Of a stretch of 64,000 bases of DNA, positions 3,845 to 35,800 are shown piece by piece. Made by a program: the position numbers and the translations under genes. Numbering within the stretch: position 1 is the stretch's first letter; every line of letters begins with the position of its first letter. Source of the DNA: an uncultured cyanobacterium. Lineage in GTDB: Bacteria > Cyanobacteriota > Cyanobacteriia > Cyanobacteriales > Cyanobacteriaceae. The notes below the pieces were generated by a model. It did not search any database and was not told the DNA's origin. It worked only from the letters and a program-made list of their open reading frames with translations. Where the stretch lies: NCBI GenBank assembly GCA_963710605.1, contig CAVQBA010000004.1, positions 896,001 to 960,000 on the forward strand. Reading direction: 5' to 3'.

Positions 3845-4316
3845 GGCTAAATTCGTAAATCATGAATATAGATAATATATGGCACAAAACAGACAACAGA
3901 AATAATTTAATTGTCAATTGTCAATTGTCAATTGTCAATTCTCTTTGTACATTTTAAGACAATCTCTACCTGCATTTTTAGCACTATAAAGAGCTTCATC
4001 AGCTTTTTTAATAATTGTCTTTACATTTGTACCATGATTTGGACATATAGCAAAACCGATCGAAATACTGATTGATTCTAATTTTTTTCCTTCATAATAT
4101 AAATCTAAATTTTTGACTTGCTTTCTAATTGTTTCTAATTGTTGTTCGAGATTGTCTAAATCAATGTTGGTAAAAACTAAAGTCATTTCTTCGCCACCAT
4201 AACGACAAGCAATACTGTCATCTGTGGTTTGAGAATTTAGATAGTTTGCCAATCGTTGTAAAACATAATCACCCGCTGGGTGTGCGTAAGTATCATTAAT
4301 ACATTTAAAACGATCG
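3781..4316. repeat. Direct repeat copy 1 (536 bp) of 5670..6205
   Basis: Aligns at offset 1889 from gctgaattattttcaccgcaat to catttaaaacgatcg. Intergenic part is nearly identical; coding parts are diverged. Confidence 0.95.
3935..4316 (-). pseudogene. Truncated duplicate of the GGDEF C-terminus of the diguanylate cyclase at 5824..7770
   Basis: DRFKCINDTYAHPAGD...RYGGEEM...KNAGRDCLKMYKEN. Similarity stops at CGATCG 4311-4316; no upstream domains. Confidence 0.9.
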
Positions 4317-4430
4317 TATCAATATTATCAAATCAAAAATCCAACATTAATAATTTTATAATAAGACAAAAAAAAGGAACAATTATCATTAATTGCCCCC
4401 TAAAAATAAATTGATTTCAAAATAAATTGA

Positions 4431-5066
4431 TTAAGCATTTTGCTTTTTGCGTTTTTTCATTAAAGTACCAAATCCTAAAGCAGTCATCGTACCTAAAATA
4501 GTAATAGGTTCGGGTACTTCCTGAAATTGATAAGTAATCGTATCTGCACCACTATTAAAACCAGAAGTATAAGTACCAGGATTGATTCCTAAACTGTCAA
4601 AATCTTCACCAGAAAAAGTCATAGTACCACTGAGAGAGCCACCTGAATAACCTGCTGGTAATCTAACAGGGGTATTGTCATTGTCAGCACGAAGGAAAAA
4701 GAAATCACCTGAGGAGAAAGAATCTGCTTGAGTTGTCCCATCATCTCCAAAAATCAAAGCTAATGGATTATCAAGAAGATTACGATAAACATCGGTAGAG
4801 GTTGAAGCAGTTGGATTAAATCTGACTATGCCACGATTTGGTCTGATTCTAGAACTACCCGTAATAGAATTAGTACTGTTAGGAGTCAAACCAGTGACAT
4901 CTAAACTTCCGCTAAGAGTAAATACTACATCACCTGCTCCTGTTTCTACCCCTCTAACAAGTATCGCTGCATCTGCTTTTTGTGTTGTCAAACCGCTAAT
5001 TAATCCACCGCCGATAATAGTTACGGCTAAAGTGTTTTTCAGGGTTGAATTCGATCGTTTTTTCAT
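4431..5066 (-). CDS. PEP-CTERM sorting-domain surface protein
   Basis: Signal peptide ending ADAA; C-terminal VPEP, hydrophobic TM, then KKRKK. Likely start is MKKRS at 5066. Confidence 0.9.
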   Translation of the reverse strand: MKKRSNSTLKNTLAVTIIGGGLISGLTTQKADAAILVRGVETGAGDVVFTLSGSLDVTGLTPNSTNSITGSSRIRPNRGIVRFNPTASTSTDVYRNLLDNPLALIFGDDGTTQADSFSSGDFFFLRADNDNTPVRLPAGYSGGSLSGTMTFSGEDFDSLGINPGTYTSGFNSGADTITYQFQEVPEPITILGTMTALGFGTLMKKRKKQNA

Positions 5067-5498
5067 AGCTATAATTTTAATATTTAAAAATAGTAATAGG
5101 ATACTCTTCAACTATACGTTTAAAAACCAAAAAAGTAAACTAGTTTGAGAACAAAATTGTAAAAAAATAGTTATTTTTAAAAAGGTTTATGATATTAATA
5201 TTATATTTACTTATAATCTAACTGAATATAGCTTTTATTTTCAGACATAATTAATTCATTATACTAAAAAAATAAAATATATTGATAAATCTCTTTCAAG
5301 CCACGACTGTAATAATTAATAATAGATAATTACTCTGAAAAATAAATTTTGTAGTCATTTTTACAGTTTTAAATAGCTTTATGTAATTCAATAAGTTTCC
5401 TAAATCTAATCTCTTTCCAAAAAATTGTCTTTGACTACCTACTTCTGGACTAACTTGTTTTCGGGTAAGATATCGGTTAATTATTTTTAAAATATTTA

Positions 5499-10337: not shown

Positions 10338-11165
10338 TTAAGTTAGTAATAATTGCATTTGTCGATCGATTTGGTTCAAATCATGATGATTAACTTGTTG
10401 TATTTGCTGTTTAACCGCTTTTGCTAAACAGTAAGCTAAATTACAAGGCACTGCATTACCAACCATCTTGTAACCAGCCGTTACATTGTTGTAATAGAAA
10501 ATATAATCGTCTGGAAACGTCTGAATTCTAGCACATTCTCTAACGCTTAAACGTCGATAAAGATGTTCGTAACTAGGTACAAAAATTCTTTTATCTTTTT
10601 CAACAAGTTTCATTTTAGGTGCTTGAGGATGAATAGGTGCGTGTCTTCCTCCTGCTTGGATTGTAAATGATGGCTCGTCCCAATTTCTAACTCTATTTCT
10701 AGACATATACATAGTTGAAAAACTACCAAGCATATATTCATGATTGGGAATTAAACAATTATTTCCATTGGTATGGTTATTATTTTTAGCTGGAATAATG
10801 TTATCTTTCAAATTCCAAATAACATCTTTTAAAACTATTTTATGAGATAAGCTATTAGGAAAATAAAATCTAATATTTAAATCATTTCTAATACCAACAA
10901 AAAAGACTCTTTTTCTTTCTTGAGGCACTCCATAATTAACAGCATTTAAAAGTTCAAAAGATAAAGTATATCCACTTTCAATAAATAATTTTTTAATATT
11001 ATTTAAAGCTGATTCGTGTCGTTTTGCTAACATTCCGCCAACATTTTCAGCTACAAAAAATAAAGGTTGCTTATCTCGTAAAACTCTAATAAATTCAAAA
11101 AATAATTGTCCTCTTTTATCTTCTATTCCTCTTAACGCTCCCGCTTCACTCCAACTTTGACAAGG
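10338..11165 (-). CDS. C5-cytosine DNA methyltransferase (M.HaeIII-like, predicted GGCC), C-terminal part after frameshift
   Basis: Frame open from PCQSWSEAG (11165) through [35 protein letters not shown]. Confidence 0.9.
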
Positions 11166-12280
11166 AAGCCGCCGATAATTCCATCACAATCGGGAATATC
11201 TGATGAAGGAATATCTTTAATAGAACGTGTATCTAACTTTGTATTCGGAAAGTTACTTTCAAAAGTTTTCCAAATTTCTTTGTCATATTCGTTTGCCCAA
11301 ATTGTTTGAAAACCTGCGTTTTCAAAACCTTTATCTAATCCTCCAGCACCAGTAAATAAGGATACGATCGTATCTTTAGATTGATTTTGTTGACTTATTT
11401 TTTCATCTCTATTGTTACTAAAAATAAGTTTTTTATTATCTTCAAAACTAAAAGTAATAATTTTTGCGTCAATTAACTGAACAGGATTGTTAGGGTTTTT
11501 AATCTTGATATCTTTAACGATTAAAACTGACGATGATTCTATTTGACTTCGATTGAATTGTGGAAAAGATAAGTATTTATCCTTTCTCATGATCACGACC
11601 AATTCAAACTTACTAGTGTGAGTTTGGTTATATAAATAACTAAAGACTTTTTTAGGATTGGTAATACTCCACATTCCTCTGATTCTTAGATTAGTAATAC
11701 CTAAGGGGTCAACTTTATTTACTCTTCCTAATTCCTTAGTTTCGGCAAATTCAACATTAGGAATGCTTTTAATTCCTTGAGAAATAGTAGATTGAATTCT
11801 TTGATAAGTTTCTTTGTCGGCGGCGTAACAATCACCATAAACCATCCATAAAGTTTTTAAGCAATTATTAGATGTATAACCAACAGTATAAATAATATCT
11901 TTTTGGCTCCAATCCTCACAATCTCGACAAGCTTTAGTTATCATCGGACTGTTAGAATACAACTTTGCTTTTGGATATGAGCTATTTAATGCTAAGTCTG
12001 ATAATGGCGATTCTATTTTTTTGATTTCGATCGCATCACCATTTTTTAACATAAGATCAGGTGGGTTATTTTTATTACCCAAATAAGAATATGTCTTTTC
12101 TAATTTATTTAATCTAATTTGCTCATTTTTTTCTTCAATTGTATTAGCAAAAATATCTTGAATAAAAATTTCAAGACCTGTACCTATATTATTAATTCTA
12201 TTCCTACCTTTATAAAAATCGATAAGTTCAATAACTGGATGCTTAGTAATTGCGATACAGGCTTGCAAAATATTTGACAT
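11132..12280 (-). CDS. NgoPII-family restriction endonuclease fused in frame to the methyltransferase N-terminus
   Basis: REase motifs [48 protein letters not shown]; then linker and MTase motif [11 protein letters not shown]...DGIIGG. Confidence 0.85.
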
Positions 12281-12397
12281 ATTTTATCAATTTATTTAAT
12301 TCTAACTACACTATTTTAATATGCTCAATATTTTTTGATTAATAAAGATTAGTAATGTCGAAATTTACTCACTTTCTTTAAATTTAAGAATAGAGAA

Positions 12398-31521: not shown

Positions 31522-32037
31522 TTAATTATCAAGTACTTGATAACCTTGTAAATTTTCGGGATTTAACGATCGTAAAATAGTAGTTGCTTGTTTTTTAGTT
31601 GTGCCATCTCCTTTAACAATCAATAAATATTTACCTGCTTGAAGACGATTACGATAAGGTAAGACATCTCCACTGCTACCTTCGGCGAAACTAACACCAC
31701 CACCGACAAAAACACTACCCATAGCTCCACCAATAGCACCTAGAATACCACCAATAATGTGATTAAAAGGCTCACCCGCCCAACCAAAAGTATCGATCGT
31801 AGTAATAAGATCAAAAGTAAAACCGCCAAAAAAACCAAAGGGAATTAGCCAATAAGCCATCCGAATTGCATTGTTTTTCGCTTCTGTATTCGGATTAATA
31901 AAACCAAATTCATCAGCATTTTGATAACCTTCACCTAAAATTGAAATTTGCGGAGTCGGAATATTAGCTTGTTTTAACCGAGTATATGCTTCTTCTGCTT
32001 GAAGACGATCGCTTAATACGGCAATTAAATAATTCAT
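31522..32037 (-). CDS. Conserved cyanobacterial membrane protein (general stress-like, Gly-rich TM)
   Basis: MNYLIAVL..DEFG..PFGFFGG..YRNRLQAGKYL. Confidence 0.75.
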   Translation of the reverse strand: MNYLIAVLSDRLQAEEAYTRLKQANIPTPQISILGEGYQNADEFGFINPNTEAKNNAIRMAYWLIPFGFFGGFTFDLITTIDTFGWAGEPFNHIIGGILGAIGGAMGSVFVGGGVSFAEGSSGDVLPYRNRLQAGKYLLIVKGDGTTKKQATTILRSLNPENLQGYQVLDN

Positions 32038-32131
32038 TGGGAAATATCATCTCTAAAATATAATGTTAAATGCTCTTTATTGTATCCATTATCATCGATC
32101 GAGAGTTCGTGAATCAAGAATATCGTTGATT
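31940..32131. repeat. Direct repeat copy 1 (~190 bp) of 35611..35800
   Basis: Shares ggaatattagcttg..ccgagtatatgcttc..gcttgaagacgatcgcttaatac..gcaattaaataattcat..tgaatcaagaatat with copy 2. Confidence 0.85.
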
Positions 32132-32300
32132 TTTAATTTTTTGAGTCTATATCTATAGTTATGAATCAAAAATTAAAATGAAAAGACGATCAAAGAATAT
32201 AGTTAATGAAAATACAAAAGTTAATTTTTAGTCGTAACATTAGCTGGAATTACTGATTTAGCATTAAAATTATGAAAGTGAAAAGAATAAGGTATCAGCT

Positions 32301-33062
32301 TTGAGAAATTACGGACTTAATTTTATTAGTGATCTAGATTTATTCAATCATACGAAAAAGACGGTTGATAAATATCGATTTAAAATTGATTTAAAAAAGT
32401 TCAACAAAAATTTAATCGACCCGATAAAGTTAACTTTTGACTCTAAAGTTTATCGTCAAGATATTGCTACGGTTGTTGAAAATGAGATTATCCGACAAGT
32501 TGACAAGTCAAATAACAACCATATTGGTTATTTTCATCAAAATATTTTTGAGTATATAGGTGATAATTGGAGCTTACCAGCAAAAGGTTATGACATCATC
32601 AGTGAAGAGTTACATTATTATGTGGAGATGAAGAATAAGCATAACACCATGAATTCCTCTTCATCACAAAAAACTTATATGCGGATGCAAAATACATTAT
32701 TAAATAATCCTGCCGCTACTTGTTTATTAGTAGAAGTTATTGCTCAAAAAAGTCAAAATATACCTTGGAAAGTTAGCTTAGATGGAAACTTAGTTGTTAA
32801 TGATCAAATTAGAAGAGTTTCGATCGATAAATTTTATCAATTAGTAACGGGTGAAAAAACAGCATTCAAACAACTTTGTGAGAAATTACCTTTAGTTATA
32901 GATGATATTATTAGTCAAGTTGAAGAAGAAGAGCAAATAAAGACAGTTATTTGCGAATTACAACAAATTTCCCCAAATGTATTAAAAAGTTTATATTTAT
33001 TAGCTTTTAAAGAATATGAAGGTTTTGATAACTTCAATTTAGTAGAAAAAAAAAAGAGTTAG
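32301..33062 (+). CDS. Eco47II-family type II restriction endonuclease (predicted GGNCC-type)
   Basis: NLIDPIKLTFD, RQVDKSNNNHIGYFHQ, EMKNKHNTMNSSS. Confidence 0.85.
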   Translation: MRNYGLNFISDLDLFNHTKKTVDKYRFKIDLKKFNKNLIDPIKLTFDSKVYRQDIATVVENEIIRQVDKSNNNHIGYFHQNIFEYIGDNWSLPAKGYDIISEELHYYVEMKNKHNTMNSSSSQKTYMRMQNTLLNNPAATCLLVEVIAQKSQNIPWKVSLDGNLVVNDQIRRVSIDKFYQLVTGEKTAFKQLCEKLPLVIDDIISQVEEEEQIKTVICELQQISPNVLKSLYLLAFKEYEGFDNFNLVEKKKS

Positions 33063-34342
33063 TAACAGAATCTTTATTAGCTGATATTTTATCGGTTTCT
33101 AAAGCAACGATTGAAAAATGGAAAAAAAACAAAAAAATCACTCCAACAAGTAATGGTAAATATTCTTTAGAAACTTTAACTCATTTCCCTCAAATAAAAG
33201 CGATGTTAAATTCTTGTTGGGATGAAAAGCAAAAGATTGTACCTAAAAGAAATTATCAATCGATCGAACTTTTTGCAGGTGCAGGGGGTTTAGCAATCGG
33301 TTTAGAAAAAGCAGGTTTTCAAGCTGTAGCTTTAAATGAAATAGATAAAGATGCTTGTCAAACATTACGACATAATCGCCCTAATTGGAATGTTATTGAA
33401 AGTGATATTAGCCAAATAGATTTTTTAGGATACGAAAATATCGATTTATTATCGGGCGGTTTTCCTTGCCAAGCGTTTTCTTATGCTGGTAAATCTTTAG
33501 GGTTTGAAGATACTAGAGGCACATTATTTTTTGAATACGCTAGAGCAATAAAACAATTACAACCCAAAATATTTTTAGGCGAAAATGTCAGAGGATTATT
33601 AAATCACGATAATGGCAAAACACTGGAGGTAATCAAATCGGTTATAGAAGAATTAGGATACACATTAATTAATCCACAAGTATTAAAAGCTATTTTTTAT
33701 CGTGTGCCTCAAAAAAGAGAAAGATTGTTTTTAGTAGGTATCAGAAACGACTTAATCAAATATGCTCAGTTTACATGGCCCGAACCTTTTTCAAAAATAA
33801 TGACAGTAAAAGATGCTTTAAAAAAAGGGGAATTATACGATCGTGATTGTCCATTATCAGAAGGGCAAAGTTATCCTCAAAGAAAGAAAGAAATTTTGGC
33901 GATGATACCCGCAGGAGGATGTTGGATTGATTTACCAGATGATATTCAACGAGAATATATGCAAAAAAGTTATTTTCTTGGTGGTGGTAAAACAGGTATG
34001 GCGAGAAGATTGTCTTATGATAATCCTAGTTTGACTTTAACTTGTTCTCCTGCCCAAAAACAAACCGAAAGATGTCATCCTCAAGAAACTAGACCACTTA
34101 CAGTAAGAGAATACGCTCGTATTCAAACTTTTCCTGATCAATGGCAATTTATGGGTTCAATGACTAGTAAATACAAACAAATCGGTAATGCTGTACCTGT
34201 TAATTTAGCTTTAGCAGTAGGTAAAAGACTAATAGCTTTATTAAATTGTATCGAAGATAATAGACAAGTAGATTATTCTCAATCGACTAGTGTTTTAGAA
34301 GAGCAAAAATTAGTAAAGCAAACTAGTTTATTTGACCTTTAA
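33056..34342 (+). CDS. C5-cytosine DNA methyltransferase with N-terminal HTH (M.Eco47II/M.Sau96I-like); first ATG at 33203
   Basis: FAGAGG, GGFPCQ, ENV, QKRER, GGGKTG, SPAQKQTERCHP, GNAVP. Same frame is open upstream as ELVTESLLADILSVSKATIEKWKK (HTH-like). Confidence 0.9.
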   Translation, partial: ELVTESLLADILSVSKATIEKWKKNKKITPTSNGKYSLETLTHFPQIKAMLNSCWDEKQKIVPKRNYQSIELFAGAGGLAIGLEKAGFQAVALNEIDKDACQTLRHNRPNWNVIESDISQIDFLGYENIDLLSGGFPCQAFSYAGKSLGFEDTRGTLFFEYARAIKQLQPKIFLGENVRGLLNHDNGKTLEVIKSVIEELGYTLINPQVLKAIFYRVPQKRERLFLVGIRNDLIKYAQFTWPEPFSKIMTVKDALKKGELYDRDCPLSEGQSYPQRKKEILAMIPAGGCWIDLPDDIQREYMQKSYFLGGGKTGMARRLSYDNPSLTLTCSPAQKQTERCHPQETRPLTVREYARIQTFPDQWQFMGSMTSKYKQIGNAVPVNLALAVGKRLIALLNCIEDNRQVDYSQSTSVLEEQKLVKQTSLFDL

Positions 34343-34360
34343 TGCTTTGATATTTAAATA

Positions 34361-34901
34361 CGATCGAATTGGACACGATAAGGTACGTATTTTAAATGGT
34401 GGTCGCCAAAAATGGCAAATAGATGATTATCCTGTGACGACGGAAAAAACAGCGATCGAAAAGAGAGAATATCATGCTCAACCAGTAAATGAGAATTTAA
34501 GTATTTCTTTAGCTCAATTGCAGGAATCAAAGGAAAAAAATGATTGTGTCTTACTAGATGCACGCACACCGCAAGAATATCGTGGCGAAATGTTTATGAT
34601 GAAACCACCGACAGAAAACCAACGTGCGGGGCATATTCCAGGGGCGATAAATATTTATTACGAATTAGCTCACAATGATGATGGTACTTTTAAGTCTTTT
34701 CCTGAATTAAAGATGATTTACGATCGATTACAAAATAGCATCTCGGCAGGGCAACTGATTATTCCTTATTGTGCTGTAGGTGCTCGTTCGGGACACACTT
34801 GGTTTATCTTAAAATACTTGTTAGGTTATCCTGATGTCAAAAATTATGATGGTTCGTGGAATCAATGGAGTCGAATCCCTGAGTTAGCTGTAGAAAAGTA
34901 A
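34361..34901 (+). pseudogene. 5'-truncated sulfurtransferase (SseA/rhodanese), C-terminal domain only
   Basis: GHDKVRILNGG, LDARTPQEY, GHIPGA, YCAVGARS, NYDGSWNQW; most of the N-terminal rhodanese domain is missing. Confidence 0.8.
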
Positions 34902-35018: not shown

Positions 35019-35258
35019 CTAAATCTTTTCATAAGCAGAGATAAAATCATCTCTTGGAATTCCTGATTGAGTGCAAATACTTCTTAAAGTTGATGCCTTA
35101 ATCTTTTTATGGTTAGGTATCGTTAAAGGAGTGATGCTTCCATCTTTATTGGTACGACTCATAGAAATATGTTCTCTTTCCCTAACAATGACAAAACCTA
35201 AAGATTCTAAAGTTTTAATCACTTTCTTTTTCGGTGCATCTACTGGGAATTTGGGCAT
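35019..35258 (-). CDS. hicA: HicA family toxin
   Basis: LESLGF..REREH..LTIPNH..STLRSI. Confidence 0.85.
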   Translation of the reverse strand: MPKFPVDAPKKKVIKTLESLGFVIVREREHISMSRTNKDGSITPLTIPNHKKIKASTLRSICTQSGIPRDDFISAYEKI

Positions 35259-35477
35259 TTAAACCGTTGCCTCCGCCACATAAGCCTCTAATACAGAGGA
35301 AGAAGTTTCTAAGACTTGTTCACCGAAAGTCTCAATATGAAAAGAAATTGCTGAGCGTACGTCATTCAATGCTTCTTCATACGTATCTCCTTGACCTACT
35401 ATTACACCTTCAATACCCAAAGGATAAGCAACATAACCGTCTAAATGTTTTTCGACTAATATTTTGATATTCTTCAT
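35259..35477 (-). CDS. hicB: Short HicB family antitoxin
   Basis: DGYVAYPLG..GQGDTYEEALNDVRSAI; likely start MKNIK at 35477; stop abuts the hicA ATG. Confidence 0.85.
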   Translation of the reverse strand: MKNIKILVEKHLDGYVAYPLGIEGVIVGQGDTYEEALNDVRSAISFHIETFGEQVLETSSSVLEAYVAEATV

Positions 35478-35610
35478 GATTGATATAGTTTGAGATAATA
35501 ATTTAAAACTAAATAAATTGTGCCAATACATCTAAGTTTTTTAAGTTAAGACAATTATACAATTTTTTAAATCGTAAAAAAACTCGAATAAACCTTTATT
35601 GGTAGGTTTG

Positions 35611-35800
35611 ATAGATATTTGTGAAGTTGGAATATTAGCTTGTGTTAGCCGAGTATATGCTTCTTTAGCTTGAAGACGATCGCTTAATACCGCAATTAAA
35701 TAATTCATCTATAAAATAATCCTGAAAATATAATGTCAGATATTACTTACTTTACTCATTACCAACTATCAAGATTACTGAATCAAGAATATTGTTAATT
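35611..35800. repeat. Direct repeat copy 2 carrying an orphan 5' fragment of the 31522..32037 gene
   Basis: Minus strand from 35708 reads MNYLIAVLSDRLQAKEAYTRLTQANIPTSQISI, then diverges. Confidence 0.85.

Follow-up and report, generated by a model that had tools for sequence, protein, structure and literature searches.

How is a conserved protein segment translated when its reading frame offers no start codon? The question is raised by a restriction-modification (R-M) locus in a 64,000-nucleotide stretch of DNA from an uncultured cyanobacterium, the whole of which is called the window below. In this locus, a gene for an Eco47II-family type II restriction endonuclease (REase) is followed by one for a C5 cytosine DNA methyltransferase (MTase). 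A helix-turn-helix (HTH) segment belonging to the N-terminus of the MTase lacks a start codon and is encoded in the -1 frame relative to the end of the REase gene, the two frames meeting at a run of ten adenines (A10). From the sequence alone, the original prediction had seen here a candidate recoded or phase-variable R-M fusion. We hold, with moderate confidence, that the locus is a lineage-specific variant arisen by start loss or frameshift, that a 379-aa MTase without the HTH segment would be its main product, and that slippage at the homopolymer would amount to an incidental leak into a fusion protein.

The sequence statements behind that prediction, namely the REase end, the A10 run, the stop at 33029 and the lack of a start before 33203, all hold on rereading (Table 1). 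The REase open reading frame (ORF) ends in GAA AAA AAA AAG AGT TAG, with TAA next in frame, and reads the heptamer A_AAA_AAG through the codons AAA (33051-53) and AAG (33054-56). The open stretch of the -1 frame, 33032-34342, encodes ..KKKELVTESLLADILSVSKATIEKW.. and then the C5 MTase; its earliest ATG, GTG or TTG is the ATG at 33203, none of the three occurring within 33032-33202. With the full table-11 codon set the earliest start becomes an ATT at 33086, inside the HTH segment. Non-standard initiation, one of the routes first proposed, is rejected as a source of the complete HTH, since this first candidate cuts the first helix. The third frame carries TAG TAG directly 5' of the run, and so no length of the A-run gives the MTase a separate start. 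Lacking any usable start, the HTH segment can therefore be made only as an extension of the REase at its C-terminus. A tract of A11 or A8 would put REase and MTase in one frame, as a 680-aa REase-HTH-MTase, while A9 or A12 would alter the REase tail only. The routes to the HTH that stand are thus a -1 shift, an A11 mRNA and a DNA tract of A11 or A8, and the three products originally proposed (free REase, the 680-aa fusion and the 379-aa HTH-less MTase) all appear geometrically possible; which of them are made, and in what amounts, we infer from the comparisons below.

The position of the run is hardly accidental. The 64-kb window contains a single A10, against 7.04 expected from dinucleotide shuffles, and the 3.93-Mb assembly has 28 A/T runs of at least 10. 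The odds of such a run arising by chance within the 31-nt overlap of the two frames are estimated at about 3 in 10,000, so that the run and the frame change must be linked, be it through mutation or through function. In a genome-wide screen, 29 of 122 overlapping ORF pairs had a startless downstream ORF, a count in which true split genes are not distinguishable from chance open frames, and a run longer than 7 was present only at this pair.

Orthologous loci are built differently at the same point. Junctions were read in 84 other loci, four from related genomes and 80 from metagenome contigs, and 79 of the 84 N-termini were readable (L018, L035, L042 and L092 are cut or unaligned; L005, on the other strand, was skipped, and its ATG also overlaps the REase stop). 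Every readable locus has its own start 5-17 codons before the conserved LLADI, an ATG in 78 and a TTG/GTG in one (L070), which leaves the window as the sole locus without an HTH-MTase start among those read. A co-directional upstream REase was flagged at 24 loci, reduced to 23 by a contig-end artefact (L091); at all 23, REase stop and MTase ATG overlap or adjoin (1, 4, 8 or 35 nt), and the 8-nt overlap form, like AATGTCTAA, is found in 15. Compared with L002 or L019, the window reads ATT where they have ATG and is longer at this point by about 10 nucleotides, the A10 run among them. Closer relatives were sought in several collections. The MTase protein search returned relatives of 400-468 aa with the N-terminal region, at 66-78% identity, the sole closer entry being the 379-aa form of this very locus; a junction pattern with a variable run (6-14 nt) had 0 matches in metagenome contigs; the plasmid collection yielded, from unrelated bacteria, small plasmids with related R-M cassettes that are 60-80% identical at the DNA level; and the same-genus relative G001 (67% complete) gave no orthologue. 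A different frameshift is present in one orthologue, on a 2.6-Mb metagenome contig (L042 1501-2717), with the HTH in frame 1 and the MTase body in frame 3.

These known Eco47II-family systems with an HTH-bearing C5 MTase, from cyanobacteria, gammaproteobacteria and metagenomes, share with the window the PF09553 REase, the MTase (at 67-77% identity), the REase-then-MTase order, the TTG start and the HTH segment; they differ in their overlapping MTase ATG, where the window has no start, the extra nucleotides with A10 and a 6-residue tail on the REase past the family's usual ...FNV end. In the mechanism that we propose, an Eco47II-family operon, in which the REase precedes a C5 MTase bearing an N-terminal MerR-type HTH, would have come to lie in a small rearranged island, and in place of the conserved MTase ATG overlapping the REase stop there would now stand a junction with A10, longer by about 10 nt. 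It is this replacement that would have deprived the HTH segment of its start and put it in the -1 frame relative to the REase end. The catalytic MTase, started at the ATG at 33203, would be the main protective product, and the HTH form would appear only within the 680-aa fusion, by a polymerase adding one A, by a ribosome slipping -1 on A_AAA_AAG, or by a DNA tract of A11 or A8. Such a leak would simply come with the homopolymer, with no conserved programmed recoding signal, in a derived variant found in one genome.

Table 1. Features of the R-M locus and of its surroundings (positions in the window)
Feature	Position	Strand	Basis
Eco47II-family type II REase, 253 aa, TTG start, TAG stop	32301..33062	+	PF09553
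TAA closing the MTase frame 5' of the A10 run	33029..33031	+	sequence
A10 homopolymer run, site of frame change	33046..33055	+	read from sequence
A_AAA_AAG heptamer, in phase with the REase frame	33050..33056	+	codon phasing from ORF coordinates
Startless -1 frame segment encoding the N-terminal HTH domain of the MTase	33056..33202	+	alignment with orthologous MTase N-termini
Weak RNA hairpin, 16 nt 3' of the heptamer, no evidence of a stimulator	33072..33104	+	-9.9 kcal/mol
C5 cytosine MTase ORF from first ATG, 379 aa, HTH-less	33203..34342	+	PF00145, TIGR00675
Left direct-repeat copy, pair ~90% identical	31940..32131		repeat families D1, D10
Right direct-repeat copy	35611..35800		repeat families D1, D10
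Rhodanese-domain ORF, 189 aa, starts inside the MTase 3' end	34332..34901	+	
HicA-toxin family ORF and adjacent 90-aa ORF	35019..35531	-	PF07927, 9.5e-13
Second R-M locus, REase and C5 MTase	10338..12283	-	PF09521 (REase)

Both enzymes look intact. The REase matches PF09553 at 5.5e-87 over profile positions 1-202 of 202 and retains 79 of the 81 columns conserved at 90% or more among 120 homologues. Its TTG start stands at the same position in six orthologues (L015, L016, L021, L023, L024 and L058), behind a GGAG-like sequence, and so is no defect. We take its specificity to be of the GGNCC type, from the name of the Eco47II family; the observed/expected ratio of GGNCC in the assembly, 1.06, is uninformative on site avoidance. 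The MTase matches PF00145 at 4e-89 (profile positions 2-323 of 324) and TIGR00675 at 1.5e-86, and it keeps every invariant column of a 20-sequence alignment, so that its catalytic domain, with motif I, PC and ENV, is complete. Since both enzymes look functional, some MTase must be made. The entry for this locus in the protein database is the 379-aa form (P0003), a call that hides a conserved, startless HTH. The ATG at 33203 lies 18 codons 5' of the catalytic domain, and relatives in which the MTase is fused to the REase start directly at motif I (PF00145 from residue 4 in P0139, for example); in these relatives without an HTH, the catalytic domain is thus autonomous.

The 57 codons 5' of that ATG contain no stop, align with orthologous MTase N-termini and keep all invariant columns. 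Homologous N-termini in a 25-sequence alignment match HTH_17 (10/25), MerR_1 (9/25) and MerR (8/25), with a best E of 3.4e-14; the window's own segment had no match at E <= 0.01 in the profile search, the top hit being YdaS_toxin at 0.048. The designation 'HTH-like' thus has its support in homology and not in a direct match. The ratio of HTH to MTase-body identity is 0.80, against 0.72 +/- 0.10 in 112 ortholog pairs of the same divergence, from which the segment would appear not to be decaying, an outcome that fits a recent loss and continued translation equally well. SsoII-type C5 MTases, compared by architecture only, likewise carry a region of about 70 residues before the catalytic domain, and that region regulates transcription of the R-M genes (PMC3978073). 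The HTH here differs in being of the MerR/HTH_17 kind by its homologue matches and, in the window, in being unable to initiate alone. An operator for it was looked for by eye in the upstream regions of 21 REase genes, which have no palindrome in common.

Several observations weigh against reading the locus as a start-loss or frameshift variant in which the 379-aa protein is the main product and slippage an incidental leak. The ATG at 33203 has no Shine-Dalgarno (SD)-like sequence upstream, and homologues do not conserve its methionine. In the HTH segment decay is not apparent, the run lies in exact phase, and the two frames join within 1-2 residues of where orthologous MTases begin. Several changes separate the junction from its orthologues, which suggests that it has persisted for some time. 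Finally, runs of at least 9 A are reported to slip efficiently during transcription (PMC5009743), and the fusion could therefore be a sizeable product.

How, then, might the fusion be made? A -1 shift on the heptamer and an mRNA with one extra A both lead to the same 680-aa product, comprising 252 REase codons and 428 from 33056. For the ribosomal route, A_AAA_AAG is among the most shift-prone heptamers in E. coli when stimulated; in E. coli reporters, unstimulated heptamers exceed a background of 0.055% by a factor of only 2.1-10 (PMC4066793). The window shares the identical in-phase heptamer and a run of at least 9 nt with dnaX and IS3-IS911 and with Thermus dnaX, and its close 0-frame stop resembles a minority dnaX arrangement (PMC5009743). 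Unlike those systems, it has no stimulator in the form of an SD-like element, a significant hairpin or a pseudoknot, and its transframe product would be a fusion of two enzymes. The hairpin 3' of the heptamer begins farther off (16 nt) than the roughly 5-9 nt sought for a stimulator and has z = -0.92, 37 of 200 shuffles folding as well or better; neither GGAG nor AGGA occurs within 28 nt 5' of the heptamer; and an Rfam search of 32000-34600 returned nothing at E <= 1. Nor is the arrangement conserved, being present in 0 of 79 orthologous loci. In the reading of the locus as programmed recoding or phase variation, the logic of the HTH start loss survives, whereas the programme itself is unsupported, with no stimulator, no Rfam match and no counterpart among orthologues, all 79 of which have a normal start codon before the HTH, an outcome that the original prediction had itself named as refuting it.

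The transcriptional route fares better. In vivo, bacterial RNA polymerase slips efficiently on A or T runs of 9 nt, and Thermus thermophilus dnaX uses a 9-nt run at which slippage mainly adds A's (PMC5009743). The A10 run exceeds that length, and one added A gives exactly the MTase frame. Because runs of 9 slip, mainly by adding A, and because +1 A is the MTase frame, RNA-polymerase slippage would be a more likely source of any fusion than a ribosomal shift. A comparable rescue has been reported in E. coli, where basal expression of a C5 MTase with frameshifting indels in a run of 8A was enough to protect DNA (PMC3812077). In phase-variable R-M systems with simple repeats and leaky 'OFF' states, too, a homopolymer shifts an R-M frame and slippage partly rescues it (bioRxiv 10.64898/2026.04.01.715767; PMC3812077). 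The run in the window differs from those of phase-variable mod genes in lying at a gene junction and not inside a mod gene, and the host differs in being a free-living cyanobacterium, as judged by the names of its relatives. A limited literature search found no precedent for a slippage- or frameshift-linked REase-MTase pair.

Two other ideas about expression can be set aside. Amber suppression of the REase TAG is rejected, as TAA follows in frame anyway and the 'tRNA-Pyl(cta)' that might have suggested it is presumed to be a false positive. This 92-nt ARAGORN call, with anticodon CTA, lies in the same genome at C4:820043-820134 (L095 244-335) and shows no Rfam tRNA at E <= 0.01, so that it is probably spurious. 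A scan for promoters and terminators is uninformative, with 0 terminators and 14 promoter-like sites where 12.9 are expected; the 9/12 promoter-like site at 33111-33138, upstream of the ATG at 33203, is not treated as evidence.

A more ambitious explanation is that A10 has been kept by selection as a switch, slippage, a -1 shift or a change in tract length setting the ratio of free REase to fusion and so tying the output of the regulator-bearing MTase to translation of the REase. We regard this as unlikely, although much about the junction would suit it. The heptamer is in phase, with a 0-frame stop one codon downstream, yet it has neither a stimulatory structure nor an SD-like element to support it. 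A single tRNA-Lys, with anticodon UUU, was detected and no CUU species among 39 tRNA genes (ARAGORN), but a tRNA-Lys(CUU) gene could be missed because the assembly is only 84.9% complete. In favour of selection, too, are the full conservation of the HTH segment, with no decay, and the rarity of A10 runs in this genome; against it stands the absence of the arrangement from the 79 orthologous loci, and the databases searched contain no closer relative (the next MTase is at 77%, metagenome junctions number 0 and plasmids reach at most 80%). Slippage mainly adds A's (PMC5009743), an MTase with indels in 8A still protects (PMC3812077), and a second locus in the window, where REase and MTase run on in frame, implies that the lineage tolerates this order; these likewise favour the switch.

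Fusions elsewhere in the family speak against it from another side. REase homologues longer than 443 aa numbered 156 at E <= 0.001, and the 120 listed were placed by BLAST: 116 are MTase-first (MTase-REase) fusions in a single frame, with no slippage, and Pfam agreed on that order in all 10 checked, while three of the 120 carry other N-terminal parts. The order REase-HTH-MTase was found in 0 of the 120 listed among the 156. Two Vibrio-type proteins of 680 aa (P0150 and P0151) are HTH-MTase-REase, and these, together with P0206 and P0172, join the same two domains as the window in one polypeptide, in one frame and in the opposite order. In the last of the 120, a protein of 449 aa (P0159), REase residues 1-154 (73% identical) are joined to MTase residues 129-407 (78% identical), as a deletion product. 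Single-chain enzymes with both domains are thus common, but in the order opposite to REase-MTase.

Taken one step further, the A10 run would be a working switch in which the regulator-bearing MTase is made only as the fusion, by slippage or by A10/A11 phase variation, and the HTH-less MTase supplies basal protection. This we consider doubtful, somewhat more so than selection on the run as such. Were it true, it would point, together with the second fused pair, to a habit of this lineage of chaining the methylase translationally behind the endonuclease, for which, as to both order and mechanism, the limited literature searched has no precedent among C5 type II systems. If useful amounts of the fusion are made, slippage at the 3' end of the REase gene would determine how much regulator-bearing methylase this type II system produces, and its C5 fusion would put the REase first, whereas the natural fusions of the family begin with the MTase. 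If the junction is a mere lesion, it would be a clean natural example of start loss, perhaps partly rescued by the adjacent homopolymer, and would echo laboratory results with M.HaeIII (PMC3812077). In practice, R-M loci like this one affect the ease with which cyanobacteria are transformed.

All of this presupposes that the run has been counted correctly. Homopolymers of such length are the commonest site of consensus errors, and a true A11 (or A8) would make the locus a constitutive, in-frame 680-aa REase-HTH-MTase gene. With A11 there would be one clean ORF, to which the loss of the ATG would be harmless, and in-frame REase-MTase fusion has parallels, one 21 kb away in the same window and one NgoPII-family protein elsewhere (P0247, 613 aa); within the Eco47II family, however, the 120 long homologues listed include no REase-HTH-MTase fusion. 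The assembly itself also speaks against indel errors on a wide scale. Other A/T runs of 10-11 sit inside intact ORFs of 455, 457, 579 and 1363 aa, ORFs of at least 100 aa make up 76% of the assembly, and the valS, ileS-like and leuS-like frames (898-1072 aa) are uninterrupted. The profiles of rpoB and rpoC2 had no match in the 7-contig assembly, and since these genes are wholly absent from the profile search, the completeness of 84.9% must at least partly reflect missing regions. With long and run-bearing ORFs intact and the low completeness partly a matter of missing regions, there is no sign of widespread indel errors; a miscount at this one run we consider improbable. The domain matches of 45 other ORFs scanned in the window are mostly full-length, the exception being one GGDEF fragment: at 3938-5111 (minus strand), a 127-aa ORF with GGDEF positions 41-160 only lies downstream of a 226-aa ORF without a family match, possibly a split or truncated gene. 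A second A10 elsewhere in the genome (C5:111645-111654; L093 ~1046-1055) stands where a 181-aa frame ends and a 141-aa frame opens; these frames, possibly a split gene, have no homologues in 20 relatives, and the run therefore says nothing on assembly quality.

The second R-M locus of the window is encoded on the opposite strand. Its REase is a complete NgoPII-family enzyme (PF09521, 2.6e-120) that continues, with neither stop nor ATG across the linker at ~11369-11497, into a C5 MTase as far as profile position 69; the remainder of the MTase is in another frame, with an apparent loss of one base in the catalytic PC motif, near 11162-11167. At this locus the relatives G001 and G034 have an REase stop and then an ATG in the same frame. 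The P0247 protein already mentioned, found elsewhere, contains both the REase and the MTase domain (Pfam) and covers 97% of the REase-first query. The window thus holds two REase-first pairs with an MTase lacking its own start, each interrupted by a frameshift, and it is in the R-M genes that the frameshifts of the window concentrate. Two such pairs may reflect R-M decay, or a lineage that tolerates an MTase chained behind its REase.

If decay is the answer, the loss of the start would be a step in pseudogenisation, the REase would be silent or harmless, and the fusion and the HTH would be irrelevant. Decay forms do occur in relatives, as in the deletion product P0159 and the HTH/MTase frameshift of L042, and the second-locus MTase is broken at its catalytic PC motif, but at the A10 locus both enzymes have the appearance of intact proteins, with 79 of 81 REase columns and all invariant MTase columns in place. 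An intact REase without its MTase would be lethal unless another enzyme protects, and besides the A10 locus only two C5 MTase loci were found, one of them the broken second locus. We judge this the least probable of the explanations, and the rearranged surroundings described next count in its favour.

The R-M pair lies in a small block that looks like an acquired or rearranged island. Direct repeats, about 90% identical and spaced about 3670 nt apart, bracket the R-M genes together with a fragmentary rhodanese gene and the HicAB genes. The rhodanese-domain ORF appears to be truncated, without the N-terminal part of a two-domain sulfurtransferase, and the HicA ORF with its 90-aa neighbour is probably a HicAB toxin-antitoxin pair. 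The right repeat copy is a fragment, 55 aa in length, of a gene of 171 aa that lies at 31522-32037 on the minus strand.

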